Origin: Spirochaetes bacterium ADurb.Bin133
GTDB lineage: Bacteria; Spirochaetota; GWE2-31-10; MWDO01
Assembly (NCBI GenBank): GCA_002070605.1
Contig: MWDO01000004.1
Location: forward strand, 8,184 to 72,183
Reading direction: 5' to 3'
Length of the DNA stretch: 64,000 nucleotides
The notes under the pieces: generated by a model
What the model was told of the DNA's origin: nothing
Seen by the model: only the letters and a program-made list of their open reading frames with translations
The model's database searches: none
In this document: positions 4,829-61,511 of the stretch, piece by piece
Numbering within the stretch: position 1 is the stretch's first letter
Layout of the letters: every line of letters begins with the position of its first letter
Position numbers and translations under genes: made by a program

Positions 4829-4970
4829 GCCCGTCGGTCTTTTGGGGTGGGGAAAATAAATTCGACACATATGCGTCGCTGTGTTTCATCTTATAGTTTG
4901 ACGCATATGTGTCAATTTGAAGGAACTGTCTCAAGAGTTCTCATTCCTCCCTAAAAAACCGGCGAGGGTA
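4829..4970. repeat. Copy of the MITE-like palindrome-bearing intergenic element
   Basis: Left end GCCCGTCGGTCTTTTGGGG, units TTCGACACATATGCGTCG and TTTGACGCATATGTGTCAA, right end CCCTAAAAAACCGGCGAGGG. Confidence 0.6.
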
Positions 4971-9204: not shown

Positions 9205-9208
9205 GAAA

Positions 9209-11160: not shown

Positions 11161-11318
11161 GGCTAGGGCGGGCGCTTTTGATCGTCCTGAACCAAGCCGA
11201 AGGACGACGCATATGATGTTCAAGGAGGGAATTGACACATATGCGCCGCGCTACGCCTTGATGAAAAAATTGACACATATGTAACAAATATTTTTTATTC
11301 CCCAAAAAAACCGACGGA
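11161..11318. repeat. MITE-like element copy with three CATATG units and a clear right end TTCCCCAAAAAAACCGACGG. It forms the left flank of the PIN cassette.
   Basis: Contains GACGCATATG and two TTGACACATATG units. The 44-bp block at 11238..11281 is identical to 12203..12246. Confidence 0.6.
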
Positions 11319-12155: not shown

Positions 12156-12299
12156 TTTTTTAGGGAATAAAAAAATAATTTACTAATTTAAAATATTTGT
12201 TTCATATGCGCCGCGCTACGCCTTGATGAAAAAATTGACACATATGCGTCAAAAAAAATCGCCCATATGCGTCAAATTTCCAAAAAACCGACGGCGCGA
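12148..12299. repeat. MITE-like element copy forming the right flank of the PIN cassette
   Basis: Degenerate left end CCTGTTAGTTTTTTAGGG, a conserved internal block, three CATATG units, and right end TTCCAAAAAACCGACGGCGCG. Confidence 0.6.
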
Positions 12300-15450: not shown

Positions 15451-16197
15451 CTAATTGGATTGAAAATAATCCCTTTTTATCTCTTTGTGTATGTCTACGA
15501 CTTTACTCCAGCAGGCGTTGGCAAACTCTTCTTCGGAGCTAAAATCAGTCGGGTAAAGCGGTTCGGAATATTTAAGTATTACTCTCTGGAAAAATTTATA
15601 ATAAATACGGCCTCTTTGTATAACGTTCCTGCTTCCTTCTATTGCCGACGGTATTACCGGAACTTTGAGTTTATAGGCAAGTTTAACTAACGTTAGATTG
15701 GGCTCAAGCAACTCGCCGTCGACGCTTCTAGTGCCTTCCGGATAGTAACACATCGAATAGCCCTGTTTCAAGAACTCCATAACCTCTTTTATTATACCGA
15801 TTCTGGATTTTTTATCGTCTCTGTCAAAAAATATTCCCCCGGCGTAAATAGTCAAAATTCCAACCACAGGTATTCTGCGAACCTCGGATTTTGACAGAGC
15901 GGTAGACGGAGTATATCTAAGAAAAGCCGGAATATCTGCCCACGATTGATGATTGCATATAAATAAAGAATTCTTCTCTTTTGACAAATGCTCTTTACCT
16001 AAAACTTTAAGCCGCATACAGAACAAAAAATTATTGGCAATAATCGTCCAAGGAACGACTAGAAATTTACGCGCGACAAGATACCTTTTATTTCTTGGTA
16101 TAAAAAGCAGCCACCAGTCGATTAATACAAAAATAAGAGACATAAACAAAACAAGCATTCCTGAAATGAAAGAAAAAATTAAATTAATTAATATCAT
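15451..16197 (-). CDS. 1-acyl-sn-glycerol-3-phosphate acyltransferase family protein (PlsC-like)
   Basis: Acyltransferase motifs I (CNHQSWADIP) and III (YPEGTRS). N-terminal transmembrane segment. Confidence 0.75.
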   Translation of the reverse strand: MILINLIFSFISGMLVLFMSLIFVLIDWWLLFIPRNKRYLVARKFLVVPWTIIANNFLFCMRLKVLGKEHLSKEKNSLFICNHQSWADIPAFLRYTPSTALSKSEVRRIPVVGILTIYAGGIFFDRDDKKSRIGIIKEVMEFLKQGYSMCYYPEGTRSVDGELLEPNLTLVKLAYKLKVPVIPSAIEGSRNVIQRGRIYYKFFQRVILKYSEPLYPTDFSSEEEFANACWSKVVDIHKEIKRDYFQSN

Positions 16198-16271: not shown

Positions 16272-16434
16272 GCGCGCCCCGTCGGTTTTTTGGGGGATAA
16301 AAAATAATTTGCTAGTTAAAAATATTTGTTTCATATGTGTCAATTTTAATAGGCGCCTCAATCCGACGCATATGTGTCAATTTATCCTTAGCTCCATATG
16401 TGTCAATTTTTCTCCCGCCCCAAAAAACCGACGG
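16272..16434. mobile_element. Complete MITE-like element with terminal inverted repeats and three CATATGTGTCAA units
   Basis: Left end GCGCGCCCCGTCGGTTTTTTGGGGG and right end CCCGCCCCAAAAAACCGACGG are inverted repeats of each other. The conserved internal block GATAAAAAATAATTTGCTAGTTAAAAATATTTGTTTCATATGTGTCAATTTT is present. Confidence 0.65.
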
Positions 16435-24894: not shown

Positions 24895-25068
24895 ACGCCG
24901 CGCCCCCGGTTTTTTGCGGTAAAAAAATGACACATATGCGACTCCTTTCGTATAGGGACGTCCGGTCGTATGAGTTCCTGTGGGGGAAAAATTGACGCAT
25001 ATGTGTCATTATGGAAATCGACGCATATGAGCTGCATATATAACGCGCCGCGCGTCGATAAAAAGGGC
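24895..25068. repeat. MITE-like element copy with three CATATG units and degenerate ends
   Basis: Left end ACGCCGCGCCCCCGGTTTTTTGCGG, followed by TGACACATATGCGAC, TTGACGCATATGTGTCA and TCGACGCATATGAGC. Confidence 0.55.
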
Positions 25069-29054: not shown

Positions 29055-29984
29055 ATGGCTCTAAATTATAAAAACCCCGCTATAATATGCAATCCAAACG
29101 CCATGGGCGGTAAAGTTAAGCTCCTGTTCGACAACTATTACTATAAGCTTAAAGAATCAAATTTATTCAACGATATAGCCGTATTCGTATCGGAAAGTAA
29201 GGAGGGGGCTATTAAAGCCGTCGATACTATTTGCGCTAGTAAGGAGCGGGATCTTATTATTACCGTAGGAGGCGACGGCACGATTTCTACCGTAGTCAAC
29301 GCTCTTATGAAGTTAGATAAGAGTAAGCGGCTCCCCATATTTCCCCTGCCGTCCGGTTCGGGCAATTCGCTTTTAAGAGATTTTAACGTTTTAACGTTAG
29401 AGGACGCTATAAATAATTATAAAAAAGCCGAAGCTCCGGAAAAATTTGATCTCCTTTTTGTGGAGGAGATTGAAGGAAATTTCAAGTATTACTGTATAAA
29501 CGTTCTTGGTATGGGTTTTATATCGGACGTCGTAGTAACCGTTTTAAAATTTAATAAGAGGTTCGGCGCGTTATCGTATTTTATCGGCATCTTCTCGTCG
29601 CTGGGCAAATTCAAGCCTTACGATACAAAGATCGTCTACGACGGCGGAACTAACGAGTACAAATCAAGTAAAGTTTTTTTTCTTACCGTTTCAAACACAA
29701 AACGGTCGGGAGGCAAGATTCTTGTAGCTCCCGAAGCCCATCATAACGACGGCTTTATGGATGTCGTAGCTCTTCACGATATAGGAAGATTTAGATTTCT
29801 TAAAGGATTTTTGAAAGCTTTTAGAGGCAAGCGGATAAAAGATAAAGGGCGTAAATATATCAGAACCGATTCGCTCGAAATATATGCGTCCCCAAAATTT
29901 TATCTTATGCCCGACGGCGAATTGGAGGGAACTTCGCCGGTTAGAGTTTCTGTAATAAGGAACGAAGTGGAACTAATTGTTTAA
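29055..29984 (+). CDS. Lipid kinase of the diacylglycerol-kinase catalytic-domain family (YegS/BmrU-like)
   Basis: DAGK_cat signature ITVGGDGTISTVVNAL, with PSGSGN downstream. Confidence 0.7.
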   Translation: MALNYKNPAIICNPNAMGGKVKLLFDNYYYKLKESNLFNDIAVFVSESKEGAIKAVDTICASKERDLIITVGGDGTISTVVNALMKLDKSKRLPIFPLPSGSGNSLLRDFNVLTLEDAINNYKKAEAPEKFDLLFVEEIEGNFKYYCINVLGMGFISDVVVTVLKFNKRFGALSYFIGIFSSLGKFKPYDTKIVYDGGTNEYKSSKVFFLTVSNTKRSGGKILVAPEAHHNDGFMDVVALHDIGRFRFLKGFLKAFRGKRIKDKGRKYIRTDSLEIYASPKFYLMPDGELEGTSPVRVSVIRNEVELIV

Positions 29985-29985
29985 T

Positions 29986-30705
29986 ATGAAAAAAATATTG
30001 TTAGCGCCGTTATCGATAATTCTCTGGATAAATTTCTGGACGTTATCGACGCTATCTATATCTTTACTAATATTTTTAGCCTTATTTATCCCTAAAAAAT
30101 ATTATAATCCATTGGTAAGGCTTGTCTGCCGTATTTTATCCTATTCTGTTCTAATATTTCCCGTTTTAAAAACAGACGTTTCAAAAGATTTTCCATTTCC
30201 GGTAATATATGTCGCTAATCACGTTAGTTTTTTCGATTTATTTATTTCCGGGACGGCGCTCCCCGGATACCCCAGAGGACTCGAACTAAAAGAGCATTTC
30301 AGCAAGCCCATATACGGCTGGTTTATAACAAAATTCGGGCAAATACCTATCGACAACAAAAATCCCGCTAAAACAAGGACGTCGCTAAACGAAGCGTCGA
30401 ACATTTTACTAAGAAAAGAGAGAAATCTGTTAGTCATGCCCGAAGGAACAAGGACTAAAACCGGACGTCTCGGTAAATTTAAATTCGGCGCCTTTTTTAT
30501 CTCCAAAAAAACCGGCGTTCCGATTATACCGGTAATATACAAAAATTTGTATGAATTAAACAATCGCAATAGTTTGATAATAAAGCCCGGTATTTTAAAG
30601 GTATATCTTTTAGAGCCCGTCTATCCAGAAAAGTTTGACAGCGAAGACGAAATGGCCGAATATGTCAGAACGATTATGCAAAATAAATTGGATGAAAAAA
30701 TATGA
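29986..30705 (+). CDS. 1-acyl-sn-glycerol-3-phosphate acyltransferase family protein (PlsC-like)
   Basis: Motif I (VANHVSFFD) and motif III (MPEGTRT). Its start overlaps or abuts the lipid kinase stop. Confidence 0.75.
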   Translation: MKKILLAPLSIILWINFWTLSTLSISLLIFLALFIPKKYYNPLVRLVCRILSYSVLIFPVLKTDVSKDFPFPVIYVANHVSFFDLFISGTALPGYPRGLELKEHFSKPIYGWFITKFGQIPIDNKNPAKTRTSLNEASNILLRKERNLLVMPEGTRTKTGRLGKFKFGAFFISKKTGVPIIPVIYKNLYELNNRNSLIIKPGILKVYLLEPVYPEKFDSEDEMAEYVRTIMQNKLDEKI

Positions 30706-34469: not shown

Positions 34470-34579
34470 CGGCGCCCGTCGGTTTTTTGGGAGAGGGGAA
34501 TTGACACATATGACGTTAAAGATAAAATTGACACATATGGAGCAAATATTGTTATCCCCCAAAAACCGACGGGGCGCCC
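34470..34579. mobile_element. Prototype ~110-bp MITE-like element with perfect terminal inverted repeats and two TTGACACATATG units
   Basis: CGGCGCCCGTCGGTTTTTTGGG ... CCCCCAAAAACCGACGGGGCGCC. The ends are reverse complements over about 20 bp. Confidence 0.7.
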
Positions 34580-39603: not shown

Positions 39604-39732
39604 GCCCGCCGGTTTTTTTGGGGGAGGAGAAATTGACGCATATGCGACGGCGTCGATAACGCGCGACAATTGTTGCATAAAAATTCGACGCATATGTGTC
39701 AATTGTTTTTTTATCCCCAAAAAACCGACGGC
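39604..39732. mobile_element. MITE-like element with inverted-repeat ends and two palindrome units
   Basis: GCCCGCCGGTTTTTTTGGGGG ... TCCCCAAAAAACCGACGGC, with TTGACGCATATGCGAC and TTCGACGCATATGTGTCAA inside. Confidence 0.65.
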
Positions 39733-48254: not shown

Positions 48255-48465
48255 GACGCATATGCGTCAGACCAAAACCGCATATGCGTCAAATTACTCT
48301 TAACATCATATGTGTCAATATTTCTTTCTACGACAATTGTCGCGCGTTATCGACCCGGCGCGTATGTCAAATTCTCTCGGGGAGCATGGCGTCTCATATG
48401 TGTCAATTTTTGTCGAGGAGCGACGCGGCGTCGCATATGCGTTGATTTATTTTGACACATATGCG
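48255..48465. repeat. Array of six 18-bp palindrome units (CATATG-centred, TTGAC/GTCAA arms) with variable spacers
   Basis: CATATG centres lie at 48259, 48281, 48307, 48396, 48434 and 48458. Sub-repeat TCGAGGAGCGACGCG-N-CATATG. Confidence 0.65.
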
Positions 48466-48576: not shown

Positions 48577-50076
48577 ATGAAAAAACATTTGATTTTGGCG
48601 CTGTTAATTGCCGTCATGGCAGATATGTATCCGGTAAAAATTAAGATCGACCAAAAGGATAAAACGAAAGAGCCGATTATCTTACAGGCGATATTAGATA
48701 CCGGTTTCGGAATTGTCGGGGTAAACGACGGCGTTGGGGTAACGGATTATCAATCTTATTTTATCAAGACCGCTTTTCATATTAATGATTTTGGGATCGG
48801 TTTGGATTTTACTATCAGGTTTAAAATATTCTCTTTGGAACCCGAGTTCCGTTTTCGCGATTGGTATATCGAAGGGGATCCGTTGGCGACCGTTTTTTTA
48901 TATCTCGACAGGATAGATTATATACGATACGGGAACGCGCAAAGCCCGATTTTTTTTACGACGGGCAAGATTCCTTATACGACTTTCGGATCGGGGACGC
49001 TTGTAAACAATTTTCATAATAACTTTTTTGTCCCGATTAATAAAGAAAACGGCGCGTATTTTCGCCTCGACGGAGAGTATTTTGAAAAATATAAGATAAA
49101 AAACATCCCTATCAATTTTACTTTTTTTTGCCCGGATTTACTGGATCCCGACATATTTGGATTTGATTTCAATATAAACCCCCTTGGATTTGCTAAATTC
49201 AAAGATATTTTCAAATTATCGTTAGGCGTTACTTTTATGTCGGATCTTGATACTTTTGAGAGAAACAGGCTGAGCGCTCTCAAAGGGCAATATTTTCAAA
49301 GCCATAGAAATTTTCACGTTAACGGATTTAGTTCGGCGTTGATTAGCGGATCCGTTCCGATATCTTTTGTATATTTTAAAAAGGATTACGTCAAAGTATC
49401 TGTAATCGACGAAGTAGCTTTTGCATACAACGGAGCCAATCCGTCCGATCCGGATAAGTCCGATTTTGGGATTGCCAATAATCTTGAAGTGGAAGCGAGA
49501 TTCTTAAACGTTAAGAATTCCGGATTGCTTTTAGGATTAAGCTCCGGATTTATCGTTCAAGGCAAAGATTTTTTTATAAATTATTTTTCCTCTAACTACC
49601 AGATAGTCAGGCAGAAGCAGTATAGCGGGCAGAGCGAAGATTATAATTTATACGTATCTGCGGGATTTGGTCTGTACGCTTTAAACGACAATTTGCATTT
49701 CAAATTTAAGATACTAATGCCGTTAATAACGGACGTATTCAAATCTAAATACGCGATGGAATTTAGATTGTCCGAATTTGCCGTTAAAGGGTTGACGATA
49801 GACGTTTTTTATGAAACGGGATGTACCGATCTGCACATATCCGGATCAAACGGGGGACACTTTCTCGAGTCGATAACGGAGAATTTCAGATTTTACGCCG
49901 AAGTAAGCTATAAGATTTATTCCGCTAAGATAAGTTTTATTATCGGGCTTCAAACTCCCGGTTGGATAGTCGAGGAAGACTATTTGCCGCCGGAAAATCC
50001 TAACGAGTTTTATATAGAGAGATATGGCGCTGATATTCAAAAATTTGTCGGAGTGGGGGTGTCTTTTGTTTTATAA
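48577..50076 (+). CDS. Hypothetical secreted / outer-membrane-like protein
   Basis: Signal peptide MKKHLILALLIAVMA. Aromatic-rich alternating pattern. C-terminus ends in a hydrophobic residue. No domain recognised. Confidence 0.5.
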   Translation: MKKHLILALLIAVMADMYPVKIKIDQKDKTKEPIILQAILDTGFGIVGVNDGVGVTDYQSYFIKTAFHINDFGIGLDFTIRFKIFSLEPEFRFRDWYIEGDPLATVFLYLDRIDYIRYGNAQSPIFFTTGKIPYTTFGSGTLVNNFHNNFFVPINKENGAYFRLDGEYFEKYKIKNIPINFTFFCPDLLDPDIFGFDFNINPLGFAKFKDIFKLSLGVTFMSDLDTFERNRLSALKGQYFQSHRNFHVNGFSSALISGSVPISFVYFKKDYVKVSVIDEVAFAYNGANPSDPDKSDFGIANNLEVEARFLNVKNSGLLLGLSSGFIVQGKDFFINYFSSNYQIVRQKQYSGQSEDYNLYVSAGFGLYALNDNLHFKFKILMPLITDVFKSKYAMEFRLSEFAVKGLTIDVFYETGCTDLHISGSNGGHFLESITENFRFYAEVSYKIYSAKISFIIGLQTPGWIVEEDYLPPENPNEFYIERYGADIQKFVGVGVSFVL

Positions 50077-52828
50077 CAAAAGAAATCTTCCGATTATTGT
50101 AGTTTTCTTGTTTTTTTTTGCGCGGTTTTCTGTAAACGCCGGCGAAGCATTTTTACAACTGATCGATACTTCCGATAGCTCGTCGGACTATTTTTTTTAC
50201 GACAAAGATTCTAAGGAAAATCTTATAAAAATTAACGATTATCTCTATTCCGGATCGACCTTTCTGACGCTTGAGAAACAGAGAGCGGAATTTGTCATAA
50301 TTAAGGACTATACGCCTATCGGTTCTATAGTATTAAGCGAAAATAGCGATTTTTATTTTTACAACGCTGGCGCTAAAAACAAAATTTACTTAAAAATGAA
50401 TTACGGTAGAATAAGGAGCGTTATAGACGAGGGAAACCAAATTGAGATAGAGCTAAAATCTGTAAAACTATACAATAACGGCGGCGATTTTGGCGTAACG
50501 ACTATATTAAACGAAGAAAAAGATCTCGTCGGTTATACGATCGTTTTTAACGGAGTAGTGGAGAATTATTTGATCAAAGATAATAGATCGGTAAAACTTG
50601 AAAAATGGGATAAGGCGGGCTTTAACGAAAATACCCTTGAAGAGATAGAGAAATTTACTCCGGAAGATCTGGAAATATGGCAAGAAAAGATGTCTTTTAA
50701 CTCTTACTATATTTCTAAAACGACGCCGATAGTTTTAGAGAGCTTATCGTTTGATACGATTGAACAATTTTCCGACCCGACCGGCGATTTATTAATGATA
50801 AGCGACTTAACGGAGGATATTCCCGACCAAAACGACCCGACGGAAGACTTAACGGCTCCGGAATTTAAGCGAGATGAAACCGAGGAAACAGATAAAACGG
50901 AACTAATGCCTCCTAAAGAGGAGATTTTTGCAGAATTAGCCAAAATTAAGCCGAAAAACTTCGTTTTAGACGAAGATTCCGATAGAGATTATACTTACGC
51001 CCCCGAATCTAAACTAAAAGAGCCGCTTTATCCCGTTATAGAAGATAAATTGATCCCAATTATGTTTATAAGCAAAACCGGCGAGGTAGACGAAGATATC
51101 GAGTCGGAGAAGGAGAGTCCGCTTAAAGAATATATCGAAGACGCTGAGCCTATTTTTAGCGATACGGACGACTCAAACGACGTTTTCGACGATATTGCTT
51201 TGCTTGACGAAACTTCGGATGCGGAAGTTCCGGACGCCGACGAGTCGGCCGACAGCGTTGTTATCGAGCCGAAAATTGAAAGCAAGATCGTCGTTAAAGA
51301 TCAAACGTCGGACTTGAAAGCGATAAAACTGCTGAGATTTTTTTCGTCGTTTTTCGCTAATGAAACGGGATTTTATAGTTACGATAAAAAGACCTGCGTA
51401 AAATTTGTATGGAAACCGGGCGTCGCGCTGGAAAAAGAAAAATTTGAATTTAGTTTTTATTTTCCCGTATTTTTCTCCGTAGACAAAATGTTTGCAAATA
51501 ATATGTTGTTGCCCGTCAATAATACCAATAACGAGTGGTCGTTTGGGTCGGATCAAAACGGCTCGACGGTAAAAATCGTTCTCGACGCCGTCGACGACGC
51601 TTTGTTAAAATTGAGAATACTCAGATACAATAACATAAACGATAATTTCTTCTTTCAGATGGGGGAGTTGAACAATTTTTCAGACTCCTCGAGATTTTCG
51701 CTGGTAAATTTTTGTTCTAAAATATTCTTCCCTATGTATAGAAAAACCTCGTTCATAATAAAAGGAGAGTCTAATATATTTGAAGGATTTTTCTATGCGG
51801 AAGATATTCTGCCGAAAGGGCTTTACGGACTGTCGTTGAAATTTATGACGCCGTATTCGAGTTTTAAATTCAAGTTTGGAATAGATATATTTGCCGACGG
51901 CTACGATTTTATGAATTTTGACAAGGGGCGCGAGCTGTATTTTCCGACGCAAGTCAATCTTATTTCGGAATTCAACGCCTTCAATATACCGTCGTTTAGT
52001 TTCTCTATATTCTTGAATATGGGGGCGCTATTTCCGTTGTCTTACAATTTCGGATCGAATAGTTCGCTCGCCATTAATACTATAAAAACTAATCCCCTTA
52101 TGCTAGTCGATAATATCTCCGCCGCTATGGGGCTGTCGATCAGGATTAAGAAACTGCAGTTTATCGGGGAGATAATCGCCGATTCGGGGTTGAACAAAAT
52201 CGGACTTTTCGATCTATCCTATTCGGCAAAAAGAGACCAAAGGATGACCGACTCGATAAATTGGTTGACCTCTACCGGCGCAAAACCGATCTCCATATCT
52301 AATTACAATTTTGGGGCGAGAGTAAGTTTCCTGATAGATATAGATAAATATCTCTATATGGAAACTTCATATCAAGCGACTTTTACTTACTATAAGACGA
52401 TAATTTTTTCAAAGAGTTATTACGACAAATTTTTCTTTAAGTTCTCGGCGGATTCGCGAGACAAATTAAAGATAAATCTTAAACTCTACCTCGAATGGCA
52501 GATAGAAAATCTAGCGGTAAGCATAATCGATACGATAGATCAAAAATACGAAACTATTTTCGATAACAATATTTTCTATCTGGGCTTCTCGATCAAGCCG
52601 CATAATATTGTCGATATAAATATCCGCGGCGGCTTGTATCCCGACTTCTACAATACGACGACCGATATGAAACTGCTATTCGACTGCTACGTCTCGATAA
52701 ACCCCGAGCCGCTTCCGCTAAAAAAGACGCCGCCGAAAAAACCGATTGAAACAAAAACAACAAAAACAACAAAGACAAAGAAAACAACGACAAAAAAATC
52801 GGAAAATAAACCGCCGCCGGCTAAATAA
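50066..52828 (+). CDS. Large hypothetical secreted protein with an acidic disordered region and a basic KTT-repeat C-terminus
   Basis: Signal peptide follows the TTG at 50066 (MFYNKRNLPIIVVFLFFFARFSVNA). The track start at 50024 overlaps the upstream gene by 53 nt. D/E-rich segment around 50760-51290. C-terminus KTTKTTKTKKTTTKK. Confidence 0.5.
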   Translation: MFYNKRNLPIIVVFLFFFARFSVNAGEAFLQLIDTSDSSSDYFFYDKDSKENLIKINDYLYSGSTFLTLEKQRAEFVIIKDYTPIGSIVLSENSDFYFYNAGAKNKIYLKMNYGRIRSVIDEGNQIEIELKSVKLYNNGGDFGVTTILNEEKDLVGYTIVFNGVVENYLIKDNRSVKLEKWDKAGFNENTLEEIEKFTPEDLEIWQEKMSFNSYYISKTTPIVLESLSFDTIEQFSDPTGDLLMISDLTEDIPDQNDPTEDLTAPEFKRDETEETDKTELMPPKEEIFAELAKIKPKNFVLDEDSDRDYTYAPESKLKEPLYPVIEDKLIPIMFISKTGEVDEDIESEKESPLKEYIEDAEPIFSDTDDSNDVFDDIALLDETSDAEVPDADESADSVVIEPKIESKIVVKDQTSDLKAIKLLRFFSSFFANETGFYSYDKKTCVKFVWKPGVALEKEKFEFSFYFPVFFSVDKMFANNMLLPVNNTNNEWSFGSDQNGSTVKIVLDAVDDALLKLRILRYNNINDNFFFQMGELNNFSDSSRFSLVNFCSKIFFPMYRKTSFIIKGESNIFEGFFYAEDILPKGLYGLSLKFMTPYSSFKFKFGIDIFADGYDFMNFDKGRELYFPTQVNLISEFNAFNIPSFSFSIFLNMGALFPLSYNFGSNSSLAINTIKTNPLMLVDNISAAMGLSIRIKKLQFIGEIIADSGLNKIGLFDLSYSAKRDQRMTDSINWLTSTGAKPISISNYNFGARVSFLIDIDKYLYMETSYQATFTYYKTIIFSKSYYDKFFFKFSADSRDKLKINLKLYLEWQIENLAVSIIDTIDQKYETIFDNNIFYLGFSIKPHNIVDINIRGGLYPDFYNTTTDMKLLFDCYVSINPEPLPLKKTPPKKPIETKTTKTTKTKKTTTKKSENKPPPAK

Positions 52829-52904: not shown

Positions 52905-53075
52905 CTGTCGGCGTTTTGGGGCTAAAAATTTTTGACACATATGCGTCGCATAATAATTCGACGCATATGTGTCAATTTCTTCATCGAGAAGCGGCGCGTA
53001 TCATATGTGTCAATTTCTCATCGAGGAGCGACGCGTATCATATGTGTCAAATTCTATCAAGACGCGTCGAGGCGC
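52905..53075. repeat. Array of four to five palindrome units with left end TGTCGGCGTTTTGGGG
   Basis: CATATG centres lie at 52939, 52964, 53002 and 53039. Tandem sub-unit TCATCGAGGAGCGACGCGTATCATATGTGTCAATTTC. Confidence 0.65.
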
Positions 53076-53256
53076 ATAATATATCTAAAAAATATTTGAC
53101 AATTTTTCAATTTAGTTTATACTCGTTCGATATTGAAAAAATATTTCTATCGCCCGATTGAAAACTACGGACGGCGAAAGCGCGAAGCGTTTTCAGCGGG
53201 ATATACGGCATTCTTTGAAACGCAATATTTAACAACTTAATTAAGGAGATTTTGGC

Positions 53257-54558
53257 ATGGCATATCCAAAAAGAATTGTAATAACCGGAATGGGAATAAA
53301 CGCGCCTAACGGCGATACTCCCGAAACTTTTTATAATAATCTTATAGCAGGGAAGTCCGGTATAAAAAAAATGACGAGCGTTAACACCGATAGAATCAGA
53401 TGTAAGATCGGAGGCGATCTGGGAGACTACGACGTTAGAGGAAAGTTGGACTCGTTGAAAGATAATATTCCGGAAGACGTTTTAAAAAGAGCTAAAAAGA
53501 TCATAAAGACCGCCCCTTTTTCGACAAAGCTTACGCTTCTAGCCGCTTTGGACGCTTACAAAGACGCCGGATTATTTAAAAACGCCCCCGATCCGGACAG
53601 AATGGCGGTAGTTTTGGGGGGACACAATTTCCACGACAACTACATTGTAAAGAACGTAAGGCAATTTGAAGAAGAGCCGGAGTATATAGACGGATTGATG
53701 GGTATCTGCGTTTTTGATAGCGACGTTGCGGCAAGTATAACGGAATCCTTACAAATATATGGGCCTATGTACATAACCGGCGGCACTTGCGCAAGCTCGG
53801 GTATGGCGATGAAAAACGGCATAATGGAGATATTGTACAACGATTGCGATATTGCTATGATCGGCGGGGGGCTTTTGGATTATTCAGACGTAGGATATCA
53901 AGCTCTTATTTTAGTAAGCGCGATTTCGTATAAAAGTTTTAACGACGAGCCGGAAAAGTCCTCCAGACCGTACGACGTTAGAAGAGAGGGATTTGTTCCG
54001 TCCCACGGAACCGGTATAATGATTATCGAGGAGTTGGAACATGCGTTAAAGCGAGGAGCTCATATCTACGCCGAGATACTGTCCGTCGAGTCAAACTGCG
54101 ACGGCAACCACTTATCAAATCCATCGGTAGAGGGGCAGACTAAAGTTATGAAAAGAGCCATTCAAAAAGCCGGGATTAAAGTTGAGGATATAAGCTACGT
54201 TAATTGTCACGCTACTTCTACTCCTCTTGGAGACGAGGTAGAGCTTACGACTATAAAAAACGTTTTTGGCGAACACGCTAAGAATATTAAGGTCAACGCC
54301 ACAAAATCGATGATAGGTCATACCGGCTGGACTTCTAATACGGTAGAATTAATTGGAGCGATTATGCAGATGAATAACTCGACTCTGCATCCTTCTATAA
54401 ATATCGAAAATCTTGATCCGAAAATTGCCGCTTTGGGGATAGACGTTTGCGCCAATAAAAAAGTTGAAAATTATAATATTGACTATTTGTTGAAAAACTC
54501 TTTTGGTTTCGGCGGCATAAACTGCTGTTCGATAATAAAAAAATGGAAGGGAAAATAG
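53257..54558 (+). CDS. Beta-ketoacyl synthase (FabF/FabB-like KAS). Cys-His-His triad retained; GH-box divergent.
   Basis: N-terminus RIVITGMGINAPNGDTPETFYNNLIAGKSGI. Cys in GGTCASSGMA, His in NCHATSTPLGDEVE, and His in KSMIGHTGW, which departs from the canonical GHLLGAAG. Confidence 0.85.
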   Translation: MAYPKRIVITGMGINAPNGDTPETFYNNLIAGKSGIKKMTSVNTDRIRCKIGGDLGDYDVRGKLDSLKDNIPEDVLKRAKKIIKTAPFSTKLTLLAALDAYKDAGLFKNAPDPDRMAVVLGGHNFHDNYIVKNVRQFEEEPEYIDGLMGICVFDSDVAASITESLQIYGPMYITGGTCASSGMAMKNGIMEILYNDCDIAMIGGGLLDYSDVGYQALILVSAISYKSFNDEPEKSSRPYDVRREGFVPSHGTGIMIIEELEHALKRGAHIYAEILSVESNCDGNHLSNPSVEGQTKVMKRAIQKAGIKVEDISYVNCHATSTPLGDEVELTTIKNVFGEHAKNIKVNATKSMIGHTGWTSNTVELIGAIMQMNNSTLHPSINIENLDPKIAALGIDVCANKKVENYNIDYLLKNSFGFGGINCCSIIKKWKGK

Positions 54559-54562
54559 AGAG

Positions 54563-55702
54563 ATGGATTTCTTAGATAAATATTTAATTGATCAATTGGT
54601 TAAAGACGCGGAAGACGTTTGGCCGAAAAGGTGGAGCGAGATTGAAAGTTCTTTTCAGAAAATTACGCTGTCGGCCGCCGTCGACATTATTATTTGGGAT
54701 TTATCGCTTTTTTCAAAAAAGGGCGATACCGGAACTTATTCTGATATGAAAAATACGGTAGGCATAACGCCGGACAATGAATACGTATTTAAAAAACTTT
54801 TAGATATCCTTGTCGAAGAAAATATTTTATCGCGCGAGGGCGAAGTTTACGTATGCGTCGATAACGATCCGGAGATTCATTCTCCGATAGAGTATATAGC
54901 GGAGGCGGTAAGAGACATTCCGGAAGAGTGGGCCGCTTTCCAATGGCTGGCTAGAGGTATCGGCGGATTGAAGAGATTTATCAAAGGAAAACTATCCGGC
55001 GAAGAGGCGATGTTTGGTCCGTGGGGCGATTTTACCTTAGTAGGTCAAGTATATTATACCAGCGAAGTTTACGGTTATTGGTCTAAGCTCGCCGGTAAAA
55101 CTGTAACGCGGCTTATAAACAACGTTTTTGATAGAAAAATAACCGTTTTGGAGATTGGAGCGGGAACCGGCGGAGGAACGACCGATTTGTTTAAAAGTTT
55201 GGGCGAACCTAGAAACAAAATCGAGAAATATATTTTTACCGATATTCATAAAAGATTGGTAAAAAAGTCTTCCAAAAATTTTGAGGAATATTTCGATTTT
55301 ATGGAATTTAAGGGATTAGACGTAACTCTTCCGCTTGAAGAGCAGGAGGTCGATCTTGAAAGCGCCGATCTGTTATACGCCGTAAACGTCATGCACGCGA
55401 CAAACAATATACTATCGGCTTGTTCCGCAATGTATAAGCTTATTAAAAAAGGGGGGTATGCCGTTCTTGGCGAAATAGCCCCGCCTAAAGATAAACTTTA
55501 CAGGTATATGGAGCTTACGTTTGGGTTATTATCAAGCTATTCGTATTACGAAGATAAAGAGTTGCGACCGCTGTCTCCGATCTTAAGACCCGAACAGTGG
55601 ATAGAATATTTTAAAAAAGCGGGCTTCAGAGACGCTATTGCGATACCGGGAGATAGATTGCCCGGTTGCGACAGGGGCGGAGCGATTATTGCGATAAAAT
55701 AG
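54563..55702 (+). CDS. Class I SAM-dependent methyltransferase, polyketide/O-MT-like
   Basis: Motif I VLEIGAGTGGGT. 379 aa. Begins 5 nt after the KAS stop. Confidence 0.6.
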   Translation: MDFLDKYLIDQLVKDAEDVWPKRWSEIESSFQKITLSAAVDIIIWDLSLFSKKGDTGTYSDMKNTVGITPDNEYVFKKLLDILVEENILSREGEVYVCVDNDPEIHSPIEYIAEAVRDIPEEWAAFQWLARGIGGLKRFIKGKLSGEEAMFGPWGDFTLVGQVYYTSEVYGYWSKLAGKTVTRLINNVFDRKITVLEIGAGTGGGTTDLFKSLGEPRNKIEKYIFTDIHKRLVKKSSKNFEEYFDFMEFKGLDVTLPLEEQEVDLESADLLYAVNVMHATNNILSACSAMYKLIKKGGYAVLGEIAPPKDKLYRYMELTFGLLSSYSYYEDKELRPLSPILRPEQWIEYFKKAGFRDAIAIPGDRLPGCDRGGAIIAIK

Positions 55703-55738
55703 TCCTGTTTCAATAATTATAATTCGGAGAAATATCTT

Positions 55739-56596
55739 ATGAGTAATTTTAGAGTCGCGTATTTACTTATCGTTTTGGTTTTGTTATTTGGCTGTTCGGT
55801 GAAAAAAGATGCAAAATATTATAAAAAGGTTGAAAATCTTTTTATTGACAATAAAATAGACAAAATATTAAAAATAGCGGGAAAAAATGAAAATAAGATC
55901 GACGTGAATTTAATTTTTTTTTCCATAAGACATAACAAACCGGAATTACTAAAAAGATTTATTCCGCGCTCGCTGACCTCCGATTACGCCAAAAATGATC
56001 TTTTCAAATCTGCGATTATATCCGAAGCGATTGATTCCGGGAGCGTTGAAATGTTTAAGATCGTCGACGATCAAATAATCAACGACGACGATTTCTACAT
56101 AAAATATAATAATTTTGAAGGGACAAAACTTGATAAAGCGGTTCAATGCGGCGACAAGGAGATGATCGACTATCTGCTAAGTAAAAATTCGAAAGGAGTA
56201 TGGACTCTCTGCTATGCGGTACAGAAGAATGATATCGAACTTGTCGATAAAGTGTTTCATACAGGCTCGGGTAAAACCTGGGATTTTGCTCTGGTGGTCG
56301 CGGTACAACAGGGCAGTTTTGATATTATCAAATATTTTATCGAACAAAAAAAAATATCGCCAAATATATATTTTGAATGGAAGCCGGATTACCCGCCGTT
56401 TGTGAGAGAATTTTACGAACTATACCAGGTAGATCCCGGCGGCGGTTATACGGAAACGGCTACCGGAGAAGCGTTGAGATTTATGAATATGATGGTAGTC
56501 GATTATTTAAGATCCAAAGGGGGAAAGTCCATGAAAGAACTTGGATTTACTCCGCCTAAACCTTCCGAAGAATTTCATAGCGACCATACGCATTAA
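55739..56596 (+). CDS. Lipoprotein with ankyrin-like repeats
   Basis: Lipobox LLFGCS. Repeated helix-pair motifs (DKAVQCGDKEMIDYLLSKN, CYAVQKNDIELVDKVF, ALVVAVQQGSFDIIKYFIEQ). Confidence 0.4.
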   Translation: MSNFRVAYLLIVLVLLFGCSVKKDAKYYKKVENLFIDNKIDKILKIAGKNENKIDVNLIFFSIRHNKPELLKRFIPRSLTSDYAKNDLFKSAIISEAIDSGSVEMFKIVDDQIINDDDFYIKYNNFEGTKLDKAVQCGDKEMIDYLLSKNSKGVWTLCYAVQKNDIELVDKVFHTGSGKTWDFALVVAVQQGSFDIIKYFIEQKKISPNIYFEWKPDYPPFVREFYELYQVDPGGGYTETATGEALRFMNMMVVDYLRSKGGKSMKELGFTPPKPSEEFHSDHTH

Positions 56597-56667: not shown

Positions 56668-59600
56668 TTACGATTTACTTTTATTCCTTAGATAATACAG
56701 TTGCGGAATAATTATTTTATTAGGTTTGTTATTTCCGTCGTAAAAAATATCGATGATCGGTATATTGAAGTCCTTTTGAATTTTTCTAAAAATTGACGCG
56801 GAAACTACCCCGGGACAGCAGAATAACGGATTGAGATGGACCATAGCGTCTACGGTATTATGTTTTATATAATAGAGCGCTCGTCCGACGTTCATCGAGG
56901 TTTCGCCGGCTATAAAATTATTTATCCCAAACTCTTCCATTAGTTTAACCTGCTCCTCCATCGGCGGTTCGAACGAATCCTCAAGTAACTCTTTAAAAAC
57001 ATTCTCATATCGCCTTTCAAAGAGCGATAAGCCGCGTTTGTATTTGATATCAAGCCCGTTATCTCTATAATCGGCGTCCAAAAAGTGAGCCGCGGTTTCC
57101 GTAAAGGAAGGAACTAGAACTTCGCCGTCAAGTTCTTCTATTAGAGAGTATATATCGTCGTTAAGAATAAAGTTATATTTTGCGTAAAGATCGCCGAGTA
57201 CTGCGATACGGGGCTTTCTAACGCTCATATCGACTTGAAGGTTTTGAAATAAATTTTTAATTTCTTTAGCGGCTTCCATTAATGGCTTTTTGTTAGTCAG
57301 ATTGGTTTTGATTAACTCCATCGATCGATTTAGCGCGTCGTCTATATCGGGCGGGTTCTTCGTATAAGGGCGGAATTTATAATATAGTTTATATAAAATT
57401 GATCCCAAAATGTTTACTTCGAGAATATTAACGTTCAACTCTTTTGGAAGTTCGTCGATATGCTTCATTGAGTTGCCGTTGGCGATTTTTATCTTATCGT
57501 AGCCGGCTTTCTCCGAAGCCAATTCGAGAAGTATTGAATATTGATTAAAGTTGCACGCCATACATAGAGTAGGGAGATAGACTATACAATTTTCAGGATT
57601 TAAAGAATATTTTTCTATCGATTCAATTAAGGAACCCGAGATAGCGACGTTCGGCATACACTCCCCGCCCGAAGCGTATCTATATCCTTTGTTTATAATT
57701 TTTTGATCGAGAGGCATTACTATGGCGTTATATCCGTAAGCGGTAAATACAGATTTTTGAAGTTCGCTGATAATGGGACTTACATAAGGTATGAGAACGG
57801 TATCGTTCGGTTCGATAGAATCGTTTTTATACGACTTTATCTCTATGTTTTTGGGAGCGGCGGATTTATGATTTTTGAAGGTCTCAATCGCCGCTTCTAT
57901 TCGAGTTTGATAACCGACGTCGCTGGAGTGTTCGTCGAGCTGAATTATGAGATACGGTTTGTTGTAGCGATTCATAATATCTTTGAAATAACTTATGAGA
58001 TACGAGTCGGGACTGCATCTAAAGCATGTCAGAAATACCGGAAAAAGATTTTCGGTTTTGGCGGCAAATTCGGCCGCGCATATTATCTCTTGTCCGAAAA
58101 TCCAGTGCGCTTTATCAATGAATCTTTTAGCGTAATCGAGTTCTTGAGGTTTAAGTTCTAGCATCGATTGATAAAGAATATCAAATCCGTAATTTTCAAA
58201 CGTTTTTGGGATATTTAAATTTACGACGTTATCAAAAAAAGTATACGGACGCCCGAGAAAGAGAATTTTACTTTTATCGACGTTTTTTAGTATATTCTCG
58301 CCGGCTCTCCTAAATTTCTTTTTGTTTTCAAGGAATTTGTTATAAGAATCTAAAAACATCTCTCTGAGTTTTTCAGAGTCGATATTTGTTATTTTGGAAG
58401 TTATATCGATCAATTCTACGGAAATATCGTTGGTATTAGATTTGTTAAACTTCATTTTTGGCGAGATTAATTTATCTTTAATATTAAGAGCGGTTAGATT
58501 ATCTATAATCGTTGCGGCGTATTCCGAGTAGTAACAATAATACCCGTCGTTGATTTTATCGATGAAATACTCCGTTTCAACCTCATTTTTTATCAAACTT
58601 TTATTGTTGATAATCGTCGGAAAAAAAATGTAGTCGACTTTTTTGTTTTGCAACGACTCGACGAGACCGTGAGCGAGCAGCATAGGCGCGCAAAAGTCGG
58701 AATTGACCAATTTAGAGCCGTTTTTCATCTTTGCTTGGGAGGGCTCCTCTATTATTACTTCAAAACCCGCTTTTTCAAAAAAACTTTTAAATAGCGGATA
58801 GAATTCCGTTAAATAGAGCGTTTTTGGAATTCCGATAATTTTTCCGTTTTTTTCAACTCCGGAAATATTTTCGATAAACGTCGAATTAAATATCTTATCG
58901 ATCGCCGTTTTGGTCTCTTTAACTTTTACTTTATGATCTTCGTATTCTCTGCCGCATTTTAGCCCCCACGCGACTTTGTTTCCGCGAACTTCGTATATCG
59001 AAAGGGCGCATTTGTTTACGCACAGTTCGCAAACTTCCGTAGATAATTTAAATTCAAAGTCTATTCCTGAAAACTTAGACTTTTGATAATTTCTCTCTTT
59101 CAAAATGACCGCGATTCCCAGAGCGCCGGTCAGATGACAATATTTCGATACAAATATCGGCTTTTTGATCTCCTTCTCAAATACGGCGACAAGAGCTTTA
59201 TTTCGCGCGGTGGCTCCCTGAAAAAATATTTTATCTCCAAGATTTTCCCGACCCGCCACTTTAGAGAGGTAGTTGTCTCTTACGCTGTAAAGAACGGCGG
59301 TTATTATCTCTTCTTTGGAATAGCCCTCTGAAAGAAACAAATTTAGATCTCTTTCCATATACACTGTACATCTATCCGAGGTATATGGGGCTTTTCTTCC
59401 AAGCGCCATTTTTGATATATCGTCGAGCGTTATGTCCAGGCGTTTCGCTTGCTCCTCGATAAACGAGCCGGTGCCGGCCGCGCAAACGTAATTCATCGTC
59501 GAACTTACGACGTTTCCATTTTTTAAAAGAGTGAATTTTGAGTCCTGTCCGCCGATCTCGATAATTGTGTCGACGTCGTTGGAAAGAAAGGTCGCGCCTC

Positions 59601-60780
59601 TCGCGTGAGCAGTTATCTCGTTTATTTCCAGATCCGCGTTAATTATCTCTTTGACTAATTTTCTGCCGGAGCCGGTCGTTCCGACTCCTAATATGTTTAT
59701 CTTTTTCCCTGAAAATATTTTTTTAACCTTTTGAAAAATATTTTGAGTCGCTTTTACCGGATCGCCCGCGGTTTTTGTATATAATCCGTATAGGATTTCA
59801 TTATTTTCGTCCGTAATTATCGACTTTGTGCTGGTAGAGCCGATATCAATCCCGATATAAACGTCGGCGACCTCTTTTACTTCCGAATATTTTGTTATCT
59901 CAATGTTGTCTTCGATATAAAACTCGTCCTCGTAAAAATTTGGGTAGTCGGTCGACTCGAGTTTTAGTTCGTCTCTTATCTCTCTTTTGGTAGAGATATT
60001 AGATATAACATTTTTTAAATTCAGGTCTTTTTCTTTACCCAAAAGCGCCGCGCCGATAGCGTTAAAATATGCGCTTTCAGGTATAATTTTGACGGGGCTT
60101 CCCAAAATTTTTGAAAGTTCGGAAACGATTTTTTTATTCTTGCTCACTCCGCCCGCAAATAAAACTCCGCCTTTTAACGTCCTCCCTTTCAACAAATTTG
60201 CAAGAACTCCGCGAGCCATACCTTCGCAAAGTCCCGCGGCGATCGCCTCTTTAGTAAAGCCCTCGGCTTGCGAGTGTATAATATCGGATTTTGCAAAAAC
60301 GGCGCATCTGGTAGCGATAACCGGAGTTTTCCCTTGAAATTTATACGATAATTCGCCTAACTCCTCGCTGGTAAGTCCTATTCTTTCCGCTTGTTGATCG
60401 ATAAAACTTCCGGTGCCCGAAGCGCATAAAGGATTGATAGCGTGTTCTATATAGTTAAAATTTTCGTCAAGAATAATTAACGAATAAGATTCGCAACCGA
60501 TAGTGAGAATATTTCGGCAACCGGTCGATAAATACCTATTTGACTCAACGCTCGCAAGTATCGTATCTATAGTTTTAATTCCTTTTAGATCGACGCTCCC
60601 GCAAATTCCGTAAGATTCAATATCTTTTAAGCTAAATTTTTGAAGCAAAATCTCGATTTCTTCTATTAAGTTCTTGAAAATATTGCCGTTATGAGGAAAA
60701 GTTTTATGAAAAACTACGCCTGAATCTTCCAAGAGAACTATCGAAATATTTTTTGAGCCTATATCGATTCCTAATTTCAT
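56668..60780 (-). CDS. Giant 1370-aa fusion protein: two BadF/BadG/BcrA/BcrD-type (activase-like) ATPase domains plus a 2-hydroxyglutaryl-CoA dehydratase D-component-like domain. PlsA/PlsR (anaerobic plasmalogen synthase)-like architecture.
   Basis: Two N-terminal actin-fold ATPase modules (LGIDIGSKNISIVLLE.. and YIGIDIGSTSTKSII..) with conserved Cys pairs. C-terminal HgdB-like module with FCAPMLLAHG and CPGVVSA motifs. Confidence 0.8.
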   Translation of the reverse strand: MKLGIDIGSKNISIVLLEDSGVVFHKTFPHNGNIFKNLIEEIEILLQKFSLKDIESYGICGSVDLKGIKTIDTILASVESNRYLSTGCRNILTIGCESYSLIILDENFNYIEHAINPLCASGTGSFIDQQAERIGLTSEELGELSYKFQGKTPVIATRCAVFAKSDIIHSQAEGFTKEAIAAGLCEGMARGVLANLLKGRTLKGGVLFAGGVSKNKKIVSELSKILGSPVKIIPESAYFNAIGAALLGKEKDLNLKNVISNISTKREIRDELKLESTDYPNFYEDEFYIEDNIEITKYSEVKEVADVYIGIDIGSTSTKSIITDENNEILYGLYTKTAGDPVKATQNIFQKVKKIFSGKKINILGVGTTGSGRKLVKEIINADLEINEITAHARGATFLSNDVDTIIEIGGQDSKFTLLKNGNVVSSTMNYVCAAGTGSFIEEQAKRLDITLDDISKMALGRKAPYTSDRCTVYMERDLNLFLSEGYSKEEIITAVLYSVRDNYLSKVAGRENLGDKIFFQGATARNKALVAVFEKEIKKPIFVSKYCHLTGALGIAVILKERNYQKSKFSGIDFEFKLSTEVCELCVNKCALSIYEVRGNKVAWGLKCGREYEDHKVKVKETKTAIDKIFNSTFIENISGVEKNGKIIGIPKTLYLTEFYPLFKSFFEKAGFEVIIEEPSQAKMKNGSKLVNSDFCAPMLLAHGLVESLQNKKVDYIFFPTIINNKSLIKNEVETEYFIDKINDGYYCYYSEYAATIIDNLTALNIKDKLISPKMKFNKSNTNDISVELIDITSKITNIDSEKLREMFLDSYNKFLENKKKFRRAGENILKNVDKSKILFLGRPYTFFDNVVNLNIPKTFENYGFDILYQSMLELKPQELDYAKRFIDKAHWIFGQEIICAAEFAAKTENLFPVFLTCFRCSPDSYLISYFKDIMNRYNKPYLIIQLDEHSSDVGYQTRIEAAIETFKNHKSAAPKNIEIKSYKNDSIEPNDTVLIPYVSPIISELQKSVFTAYGYNAIVMPLDQKIINKGYRYASGGECMPNVAISGSLIESIEKYSLNPENCIVYLPTLCMACNFNQYSILLELASEKAGYDKIKIANGNSMKHIDELPKELNVNILEVNILGSILYKLYYKFRPYTKNPPDIDDALNRSMELIKTNLTNKKPLMEAAKEIKNLFQNLQVDMSVRKPRIAVLGDLYAKYNFILNDDIYSLIEELDGEVLVPSFTETAAHFLDADYRDNGLDIKYKRGLSLFERRYENVFKELLEDSFEPPMEEQVKLMEEFGINNFIAGETSMNVGRALYYIKHNTVDAMVHLNPLFCCPGVVSASIFRKIQKDFNIPIIDIFYDGNNKPNKIIIPQLYYLRNKSKS

Positions 60781-60861: not shown

Positions 60862-60930
60862 TCCCGTCGGGTTTTTTGGGAATTAAAAATATTTGTTTCA
60901 TATGTGTCATTTTATTTGACACATATGCGA
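60862..60930. repeat. Truncated MITE-like element (left end plus conserved block plus two units) with no right inverted repeat
   Basis: TCCCGTCGGGTTTTTTGGG-AATTAAAAATATTTGTTTCATATGTGTCATTTTATTTGACACATATGCGAC. Confidence 0.55.
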
Positions 60931-61039: not shown

Positions 61040-61249
61040 ATGAGAACAATAATAATAAAAACTACCGATAAATCCTATAATCAAGTTATTAGTTTAATAA
61101 AAAAAATTCCGGATATTAAATATTACGACGACGAAGACGATGTTTTTACTGAGGAAGATGAAAAAGCGTATATTGAAGCAAAAAAAGAATTAGAAAATGG
61201 CGAAACAAAATCATGGGATGAATTAAAAAAGGAACTAAATCTTGTATAA
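61040..61249 (+). CDS. Putative antitoxin of a RelE/ParE module
   Basis: A 69-aa acidic protein overlapping the toxin start by 8 nt. AT-rich. Confidence 0.45.
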   Translation: MRTIIIKTTDKSYNQVISLIKKIPDIKYYDDEDDVFTEEDEKAYIEAKKELENGETKSWDELKKELNLV

Positions 61250-61511
61250 GATTGAAATTTCAAAAAGCGTTGAGAAGTTCTTAAAATCTAGAAATAGAAA
61301 TGTTCAAATAAAAATTAGTAAAATGATAGATGTTATTTCAGTTAATCCATTTATTACTAATCTTGATATAAAAGAGCTTAAAGGTAATAAAAATCATTAT
61401 AGACTAAGAGTTGGTAAATATCGCATTTTATATGAAATAATCGACGAAAAGATATTAATATATTTTTATAAAGCAGATTCAAGAGGCGATATTTATAAAA
61501 AGTCTGGTTAG
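61242..61511 (+). CDS. Type II toxin, RelE/ParE family; paralogue of 28276..28533
   Basis: HYRLRVGKYRILYEIIDEKILIYFYKADSRGDIY is the RelE/ParE C-terminal hallmark. Confidence 0.75.
   Translation: MYKIEISKSVEKFLKSRNRNVQIKISKMIDVISVNPFITNLDIKELKGNKNHYRLRVGKYRILYEIIDEKILIYFYKADSRGDIYKKSG

Follow-up and report, generated by a model that had tools for sequence, protein, structure and literature searches.

A free-standing polyketide-type C-methyltransferase paired with a divergent FabF-like ketosynthase in Spirochaetota, a candidate unit for methyl branching of lipid acyl chains

Carbon methyltransferases (C-MTs) of polyketide synthases (PKSs) use a His-Glu dyad to methylate the alpha-carbon of beta-ketoacyl (beta-keto thioester) substrates bound to an acyl carrier protein (ACP) (PMC9821293). 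Here we describe a C-MT of this type that is encoded as a separate protein (MT) directly behind a divergent FabF-like beta-ketoacyl-ACP synthase (KAS). Both genes lie in a stretch of 64,000 nucleotides (the window) from Spirochaetes bacterium ADurb.Bin133 (contig MWDO01000004.1, positions 8,184 to 72,183), a Spirochaetota metagenome-assembled genome (MAG) whose species recurs in anaerobic digester metagenomes (e.g. GCA_035368145.1). The nearest precedent for MT is AmxMT1 from anammox bacteria, a stand-alone methyltransferase with PKS C-MT architecture and His-Glu dyad located among type II fatty acid synthase (FAS)-like genes. AmxMT1, which binds a dedicated ACP, has been proposed to methylate beta-ketoacyl-ACP on the way to branched lipids, a function that is so far only a proposal (PMC9821293). 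A second related system is the HMG-synthase (HCS) cassette for beta-branching in trans-acyltransferase PKSs, for example PksF/AcpK/PksG/PksH/PksI of B. subtilis (PMC7501309).

A first-pass annotation, made from the window sequence alone, had taken KAS, MT and a downstream ankyrin-like lipoprotein for a compact biosynthetic module, and the three open reading frames (ORFs) were found where it had placed them. Our results make it reasonably probable that KAS and MT form a two-enzyme unit, which would introduce methyl branching into acyl intermediates carried by ACP and destined for a lipid. C-MT and HMG-synthase (HMGS) branching enzymes are known from polyketide assembly lines. In this gene family they are discrete proteins, encoded beside a FabF-like synthase, an ACP dedicated to the pathway and an acyltransferase of the phospholipid type. 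The parts are of known kinds (PKS C-MT, FabF-like ketosynthase (KS), HCS cassette). In the searchable literature we found no description of their combination and no characterised KAS plus C-MT core or HMGS/PlsC cluster of this type, only the AmxMT1 analogue and trans-acting PKS methyltransferases.

MT (54563..55702, + strand, 379 aa) starts 4 nt past the KAS stop codon. The protein matches the class I Pfam families Methyltransf_12/31/23/11 and consists of an N-terminal helical lid followed by a class I S-adenosylmethionine (SAM) core with an inserted helix and the motif LEIGAGTGGGT. A profile of 26 family members matched the C-MT of CurJ (5THY) with an E-value of 4.8e-65 over profile positions 4-369, followed by the C-MTs of DisA, AprA MT2, PsoF, PksCT and LovB. 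His278 (NVMHAT) and Glu304, both invariant in the 26 members, occupy the positions of CurJ's His and Glu (NVLHAT...LYE) in the alignment. The AF2 model of MT (pLDDT 93.7) superimposes on 5THY with a TM-score of 0.86 and an rmsd of 2.9 Å over 379 columns at 26% sequence identity, and all top structural matches of the model are PKS C-MTs. When 1.84 billion representative sequences were searched, 4298 proteins matched MT at E <= 1e-30. The best 150 of these 4298 are nearly all modular PKSs of 1.7-8 kaa with two or three methyltransferase domains; only about four of the 150 are full-length stand-alone proteins, and three others are short fragments. The score on the BioC O-methyltransferase model TIGR02072 was 20.4 bits against a cut-off of 184.95, and the CMAS family domain of cyclopropane/mycolic-acid-type methyltransferases gave no Pfam match in MT at E <= 0.01.

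By profile, fold and relatives, MT is a free-standing polyketide-type carbon methyltransferase, neither BioC nor an RNA or protein methyltransferase, which upholds its first-pass assignment to biosynthesis. Its expected chemistry, by analogy, would be methylation of the alpha-carbon of an ACP-bound beta-ketoacyl or malonyl substrate. The product had been suggested to be methyl-branched or methoxylated. As MT is a PKS-type C-MT with a His-Glu dyad and scores so poorly as BioC, a methyl branch is the natural reading and a methoxy group is not. MT shares full-length homology, lid, SAM motif and dyad with the C-MT of CurJ from the curacin PKS, with DisA/DszA and with the CMeT domains of PksCT and LovB. 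In contrast to CurJ it is not a domain of a megasynthase embedded in a PKS module, but a separate 379-aa ORF paired with a discrete FabF-like KAS. The trans-acting PKS methyltransferases PsoF (6KJG) and CalH (7DMB) also combine the C-MT fold with carrier-protein-bound substrates. However, they serve type I PKS or PKS-NRPS (non-ribosomal peptide synthetase) secondary metabolism and are weaker matches to MT than CurJ (TM 0.67-0.70). Like MT, AmxMT1 is free-standing, C-MT-like and encoded among type II FAS-like genes, but it is not named among the PDB matches of MT and can be no more than a distant relative. The anammox FASII clusters, which are ladderane candidates, parallel the KAS-MT clusters described below in holding a FabF-like KAS, a C-MT-like methyltransferase, a special ACP and, as several of ours do, phytoene-desaturase-like genes (PMC9821293). 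On the other hand, no HMGS cassettes are reported for them, and they belong to different organisms.

KAS (53257..54558, + strand, 433 aa) contains the N- and C-terminal ketoacyl-synt domains of Pfam and has the thiolase fold, with FabF enzymes as the closest solved structures. Alignment to these structures confirmed the Cys-His-His triad noted in the first pass. Cys178, His318, His355 and Lys350 are invariant in 118 KAS homologs (50-97% identity), which argues for a retained condensing function, and the C-terminal NSFGFGG motif is kept as well. KAS differs from FabF by about 15 extra residues inserted around positions 60-90, by the lack of a fab-operon context and by the loop KSMIGHTGWTSNTVE, which stands where FabF has GHLLG(A/G)AG. 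Across the homologs this loop reads GH(T/A)(G/C)W, with W358 present in 117 of 118. The replacement of the canonical glycine-rich GHLLGAAG, already apparent in the first pass, is therefore a signature of the family and not a local oddity. Class assignment was based on the scores of curated hidden Markov models (HMMs). The best NCBIfam model was PRK07103 ('polyketide beta-ketoacyl:ACP synthase') with 327.5 bits, short of its cut-off of 445, followed by the FabF model TIGR03150 with 309 bits (equivalog cut-off 493.75) and the FabB model with 245 bits. By these scores KAS is an equivalog of none of the three.

Conservation of the gene pair in other genomes, suggested as a check in the first pass, could be demonstrated. 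KAS is located directly 5' of MT in 16 loci (gap -29 to 131 nt) from Spirochaetota, Myxococcota, Latescibacterota and other lineages. Neighbour-joining trees of KAS and MT contain the same clades, and the pairwise distances are correlated with r = 0.92 (120 pairs), indicating that the two proteins co-evolve. The pair exists in two paralogous lineages, and both MT types are present in four Spirochaete MAGs. Fuller gene clusters follow a recurrent order. In L001/L013 and L014 the pair is followed by genes for a ketoreductase (KR), HMGS, two enoyl-CoA hydratase-like proteins (ECH1 and ECH2), in part a PBP, an ACP, a PlsC-type acyltransferase, the phosphopantetheinyl transferase (PPTase) AcpS and in part DUF3187. 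L012 shows KAS-MT-KR-HMGS-ECH1 up to the contig end, and in L094 KAS-MT-KR-HMGS-ECH1-ECH2-ACP is continued by a second synthase (KAS'), an FAD oxidase and PlsC. A Latescibacterota MAG (L082) contains a FabA-like dehydratase (DH) gene in front of KAS-MT-KR-HMGS-ECH1-ECH2-ACP, followed by genes for a thioesterase, an AONS/Spt-like enzyme, an FAD oxidase, an SDR and Sfp. The Myxococcota loci L016 and L018 read ACP-DH-KAS-MT-KR-HMGS. In L081 a MAT-KAS fusion followed by MT-KR-ACP heads a larger cluster, L091 and L022 consist of a minimal KAS2-MT2-PlsC operon, and in L007 KAS-MT lies directly 5' of a bona fide fabF (KAS2, 569.1 bits) and fabG. PlsC-type acyltransferases are the commonest off-loading partner in the Spirochaete loci. 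On this gene content, KAS-MT is the invariant core of a predicted pathway that is conserved and widespread.

Beside KAS, the complete equipment of an HMGS cassette (HMGS, ECH1, ECH2 and a donor ACP) was found in L001, L014, L082 and L094; in the window, no gene of the cassette is present. ECH2 exceeds the cut-off of the PksI-type model PRK07110 (275 bits against 215), while ECH1 and the ACP of the clusters best match PRK07112 and PRK07117, respectively. The order of pair, HMGS, ECH1, ECH2 and small ACP, together with PRK07103 as the best model of KAS, resembles the HCS cassette. The differences are that KAS keeps its Cys and fails PRK07103, that C-MT and KR are integral parts, that no modular PKS is involved and that off-loading falls to PlsC. 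The cluster ACP (L001 16799-17134, L014, L016, L018, L020, L082, L094) is 79-89% identical between Spirochaetota and Myxococcota and carries the motif GANSLD as well as a IVEIVSNTMRELKIKIPRDEL-like helix that is invariant. For HMGS, identity is 74-94% across phyla and 61% to the Latescibacterota copy. This degree of conservation suggests either tight protein-protein constraints or recent horizontal spread. A gene of the FAD amine-oxidase/phytoene-desaturase type recurs in the clusters (L082 11310-12869, L094 10726-12243, L098 8014-9555). Furthermore, a 6-kb contig labelled Promethearchaeota archaeon (L017, JAFGBX010000424.1) carries KAS-MT-KR-HMGS 60-76% identical to the bacterial clusters, nearest to Myxococcota; this Asgard-binned contig represents mis-binned bacterial DNA or a horizontal transfer.

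Consistent with the first-pass statement that no fab genes or ACP are found near KAS, the 64-kb window contains no second KAS, FabG-like SDR, HMGS or ECH by tblastn, and no cluster-type ACP by an HMM search of all six frames (best E 1.6; positive control 3.5e-49). The genes called between 20 and 43 kb and between 43 and 64 kb did not include any fab gene. The protein encoded at 9176-11155 had no database record, and at 1-20 kb fab, ACP and HMGS homologs were sought solely by tblastn and HMM. Two PlsC-family acyltransferase genes at 29055-30705 (+) and 15451-16197 (-) reached 82 and 94 bits on TIGR00530 (cut-off 103). One of them overlaps a DAGK/YegS-like lipid kinase gene, the other is weakly OlsA-like (lyso-ornithine lipid acyltransferase), and both are general lipid genes at a distance of 23-38 kb from the pair.

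Further contigs were assigned to the window species with a 12-mer from a dispersed repeat, TTGACACATATG, as species tag. The exact 12-mer is absent from 103 of 118 fetched loci, among them the loci of a sister MAG with 94-96% protein identity. Eight tagged loci (L083-L090; two to nine tag copies each) carry fabF-fabG-hadA/hadB-like genes, and one of these contigs shares its ENA assembly with a window gene, the coverage being similar (6.6 versus 8.0). The tagged FabF (P0189, loop GHLLGGAG) scored 548.7 bits against the cut-off of 493.75, and FabG 319.9 against 297.75. The species thus possesses a separate housekeeping KAS II in this true FabF, which shares just 33% identity with the window KAS, and KAS is not its sole elongating synthase. 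The first-pass view of KAS as a non-housekeeping enzyme thus stands, also with respect to its own reservation that another fabF might be lacking. In L083 (8001-10953) fabF-fabG are followed by the HadA/HadB-like hotdog dehydratase pair, whose 84 and 68 bits fall short of the cut-offs, and FabZ is not adjacent. Behind this pair lie NusG_II, heptaprenyl diphosphate synthase component I and a radical SAM gene.

Two further tagged loci (L095 and L096; six and three tag copies) contain an isolated cluster-type KR and HMGS, 83% and 82% identical to those of L001. L095 and one of the fabF contigs originate from the same metagenome. The branching pathway of the window species is thus split over at least two loci. 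What had been described as a compact module is not self-contained but one part of a larger conserved pathway, whose KR and HMGS genes lie on a different contig in this species. The pairs of the window, L006, L007 and L008 form a short-form clade nested among HMGS-linked loci, which indicates that the split arose secondarily. The separation does not reflect decay: in comparison with the sister MAG locus L006, dN/dS is 0.019 for KAS and 0.046 for MT at dS values of 0.6-0.9, demonstrating strong purifying selection on both genes in the short-form lineage. The sister MAG (L022) and L091 have a second KAS2-MT2-PlsC locus; a search for its counterpart in the window species found none on record.

These data can be combined into a reaction scheme. 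KAS would condense an acyl group with malonyl-ACP to beta-ketoacyl-ACP, and MT would methylate C-2 of this beta-keto product. In the alternative order, MT would methylate malonyl-ACP before condensation, giving the same product, 2-methyl-3-ketoacyl-ACP. Reduction and dehydration, by the dedicated KR where present and otherwise by FabG and other FAS enzymes, would then lead to a methyl-branched acyl chain for incorporation into a lipid. In the fuller clusters the HMGS/ECH set could add a beta-branch. Off-loading from the dedicated ACP would be the task of a thioesterase, an AONS-like enzyme or, usually, a PlsC-type acyltransferase. The lipid role is supported by the PlsC- and ACP-containing contexts in relatives and by the position of KAS-MT beside fabF-fabG in L007. 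We infer the order of reactions, the chain length acted on, the contribution of housekeeping ACP and reductase and the identity of the final lipid.

Several points weigh against this interpretation. Every member of the KAS-MT family is known from genes alone. The window links no ACP, reductase, dehydratase or acyltransferase to the pair, so that the use of housekeeping ACP and FabG is an assumption, and ECH1, ECH2, ACP and PlsC of the pathway were not located in the window species. In place of a closed genome, it is the repeat tag, common metagenomes of origin and comparable coverage that assign the other contigs to this species. Moreover, the best-scoring named KS model, PRK07103, is one that we take to represent PksF, the KS of HMG-synthase cassettes, from the annotation of B. 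subtilis, and PksF-type KSs decarboxylate malonyl-ACP and do not condense. If such an enzyme is understood as a KS-like malonyl-ACP decarboxylase lacking the catalytic Cys, KAS is not one of them, with 327.5 of the 445 bits called for and an invariant Cys178.

The PRK07103 score also favours the main rival of chain branching, which sees the pair as a starter-unit factory. KAS would decarboxylate malonyl-ACP to the acetyl form, prime itself and make only acetoacetyl-ACP, from which branched primers for normal fatty acid synthesis would be derived: 2-methylbutyryl-ACP, the anteiso primer, by C-methylation and reduction, or isovaleryl-ACP, the iso primer, by HMGS/ECH via the 3-methylcrotonyl form. 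In a second variant, MT would methylate malonyl-ACP and KAS would only decarboxylate, resulting in propionyl- or isobutyryl-ACP. Both variants would provide branched primers without branched-chain amino acids. The MAT-KAS fusion followed by MT-KR-ACP in L081 and the location of KAS-MT directly 5' of fabF-fabG in L007 would fit such a function, and the third-best structural match of MT, AprA MT2, uses a malonyl-derived substrate on ACP. By our own reasoning, one scheme would employ KAS, MT, KR, DH, HMGS and both ECHs. However, the clusters hold their own ACP, PPTase and off-loading enzymes (PlsC, thioesterase, AONS-like), needless for a primer of general FAS, and a pure decarboxylase is difficult to reconcile with the invariant active-site Cys, as dedicated KS-type decarboxylases carry Ser or Gln in this position. 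A short acetoacetyl-type substrate, which would also fit, has been proposed for the analogous AmxMT1 (PMC9821293). Overall, we regard a starter-unit role as possible, yet unlikely. Also unlikely is a dispersed type II polyketide-like pathway, which would produce a diffusible specialised metabolite or signal and not a membrane lipid. The closest characterised relatives of MT, ECH2, ECH1 and ACP are all polyketide-pathway enzymes, and some clusters include a thioesterase, an AONS-like or FAD amine-oxidase-like enzyme, a type I KS-ACP or an MBL hydrolase resembling AHL lactonases. On the other hand, the prevalence of PlsC in Spirochaete loci and the KAS2-MT2-PlsC operon point to glycerolipid acylation, the pair adjoins fabF-fabG in L007, and cross-phylum conservation, very high for ACP and HMGS, is more typical of core lipid functions.

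Two simpler explanations have hardly any room left. That the pair is the inactive remnant of a broken-up HMGS-type cluster might be suspected from the nested position of the short-form clade among loci with KR-HMGS beside the pair. With the low dN/dS values, intact catalytic residues throughout, a conserved promoter and ribosome binding site (RBS), and KR-HMGS kept elsewhere in the window species, we consider this very improbable. The notion that KAS is the housekeeping KAS II and MT an unrelated chance neighbour is already contradicted and can practically be dismissed. The full catalytic triad, FabF enzymes as nearest solved structures and the lack of another fab gene in the window seem to speak for it. 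In contrast, KAS remains far below the FabF cut-off (309 versus 493.75 bits), tagged contigs carry a true FabF together with FabG and the HadAB-like pair, KAS and fabF stand side by side in L007, and KAS co-evolves with a methyltransferase that is a PKS C-MT.

Three routes to branched fatty acyl chains are known: branched amino-acid primers, methylmalonyl extender units and methylation of double bonds after synthesis. If the chemistry proposed here is true, the KAS-MT route would differ from all of them, being a SAM-based branching of fatty acyl chains during elongation. A more far-reaching version, in our opinion a long shot, is that KAS-C-MT and KR-HMGS(-ECH), working on ACP-bound intermediates, write methyl branches at defined positions into the membrane acyl chains of anaerobes, again without branched-chain amino acids. 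Alpha-methylation would place branches at even-numbered and HMGS-dependent beta-branching at odd-numbered carbons, and a dedicated PlsC would transfer the chain into phospholipid. Such a system would be an undescribed route to methyl-branched bacterial lipids and, speculatively, might be where orphan methyl-branched lipid biomarkers of anoxic environments come from.

Upstream of KAS, a putative sigma-70-like promoter (TTGACA-16 nt-TATACT; 53096..53123, +; 11 of 12 consensus positions) presumably drives a KAS-MT-Ank transcription unit; its function is deduced from the nucleotide sequence. The region from about 53083 to the KAS ATG is conserved in the sister MAG locus L006, and the repeat array 5' of it is not. 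A predicted RBS (AAGGAG; 53243..53248, +), 8 nt 5' of the ATG, is kept in L006 and L002. The KAS leader (53128-53256) was considered as a riboswitch and rejected: it has no Rfam match, a folding z-score of 0.02 and conservation no further than the sister MAG.

The third gene (55739..56596, +) encodes a 285-aa protein that scores 36.6 bits on Ank_2 (Pfam gathering score 27.3). The ORF begins with MSNFRVAYLLIVLVLLFGC, in which a signal peptide and a lipobox-like LFGC (...LVLLFGC) can be read, in agreement with its designation as ankyrin-like lipoprotein. The MT-ankyrin gap of 36 nt is free of terminator-like sites, and the gene is probably co-transcribed with KAS-MT. Purifying selection is evident from a dN/dS of 0.118 against L006; the single-sequence AF2 model is all-helical and of low confidence (pLDDT 59.7). 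Among 18 related loci only L006 has a homolog at the pair. We therefore treat the protein as a lineage-specific passenger and not as a conserved pathway component, and its inclusion in the proposed module, like a functional link of the trio to the neighbouring PlsAR-like gene, found no support. This convergent gene (56668..60780, -) encodes 1370 aa with two BcrAD_BadFG domains, DUF2229 and HGD-D, presumably the make-up of a fused PlsR/PlsA-type anaerobic plasmalogen synthase, and in no related locus is it adjacent to KAS-MT. Genes for PlsR/PlsA plasmalogen synthases have been described (PMC9702350).

The array 5' of KAS, initially reported as five palindromic units at 52905..53075, is present, but only four exact copies of TTGACACATATG are clear (52932+, 52964-, 53002- and 53039-). 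With up to one mismatch the 12-mer occurs 31 times in the 64-kb window (0.09 expected), and 30 of these copies are intergenic. They are located at 4862-4915, 6483, 11232-11281, 12235-12275, 16332-16406, 21352, 24927-25009, 34501-34539, 39633-39702, 48281-48463, 52932-53050 and 60899-60927. The copy arrangement varies between assemblies of the window species, for which the repeat appears to be specific, and L006 has kept promoter and leader and lacks the repeats. An operon-specific operator could be ruled out, since the element is dispersed between genes, is also found on other contigs and does not occur 5' of the sister MAG operon. Rather than a feature of the KAS operon it is, judged by its distribution, a genome-wide, REP-like insertion. 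The repeat is often palindromic, e.g. TTGACACATATGCGTCG...CGACGCATATGTGTCAA. Several copies are followed by a conserved AACAAATATTTTT-like stretch, so that some may overlap promoters.

Two genes further upstream (48577-50076 and 50024-52828, both +) encode proteins of 499 and 934 aa with signal-peptide-like N-termini and no Pfam or NCBIfam match. The larger one has a Lys/Thr/Pro-rich tail, and both may be lineage-specific surface or outer-membrane proteins. Beyond the 1370-aa gene, two small overlapping ORFs of 69 and 89 aa (61040-61249 and 61242-61511, +) are antitoxin-toxin-like in appearance.

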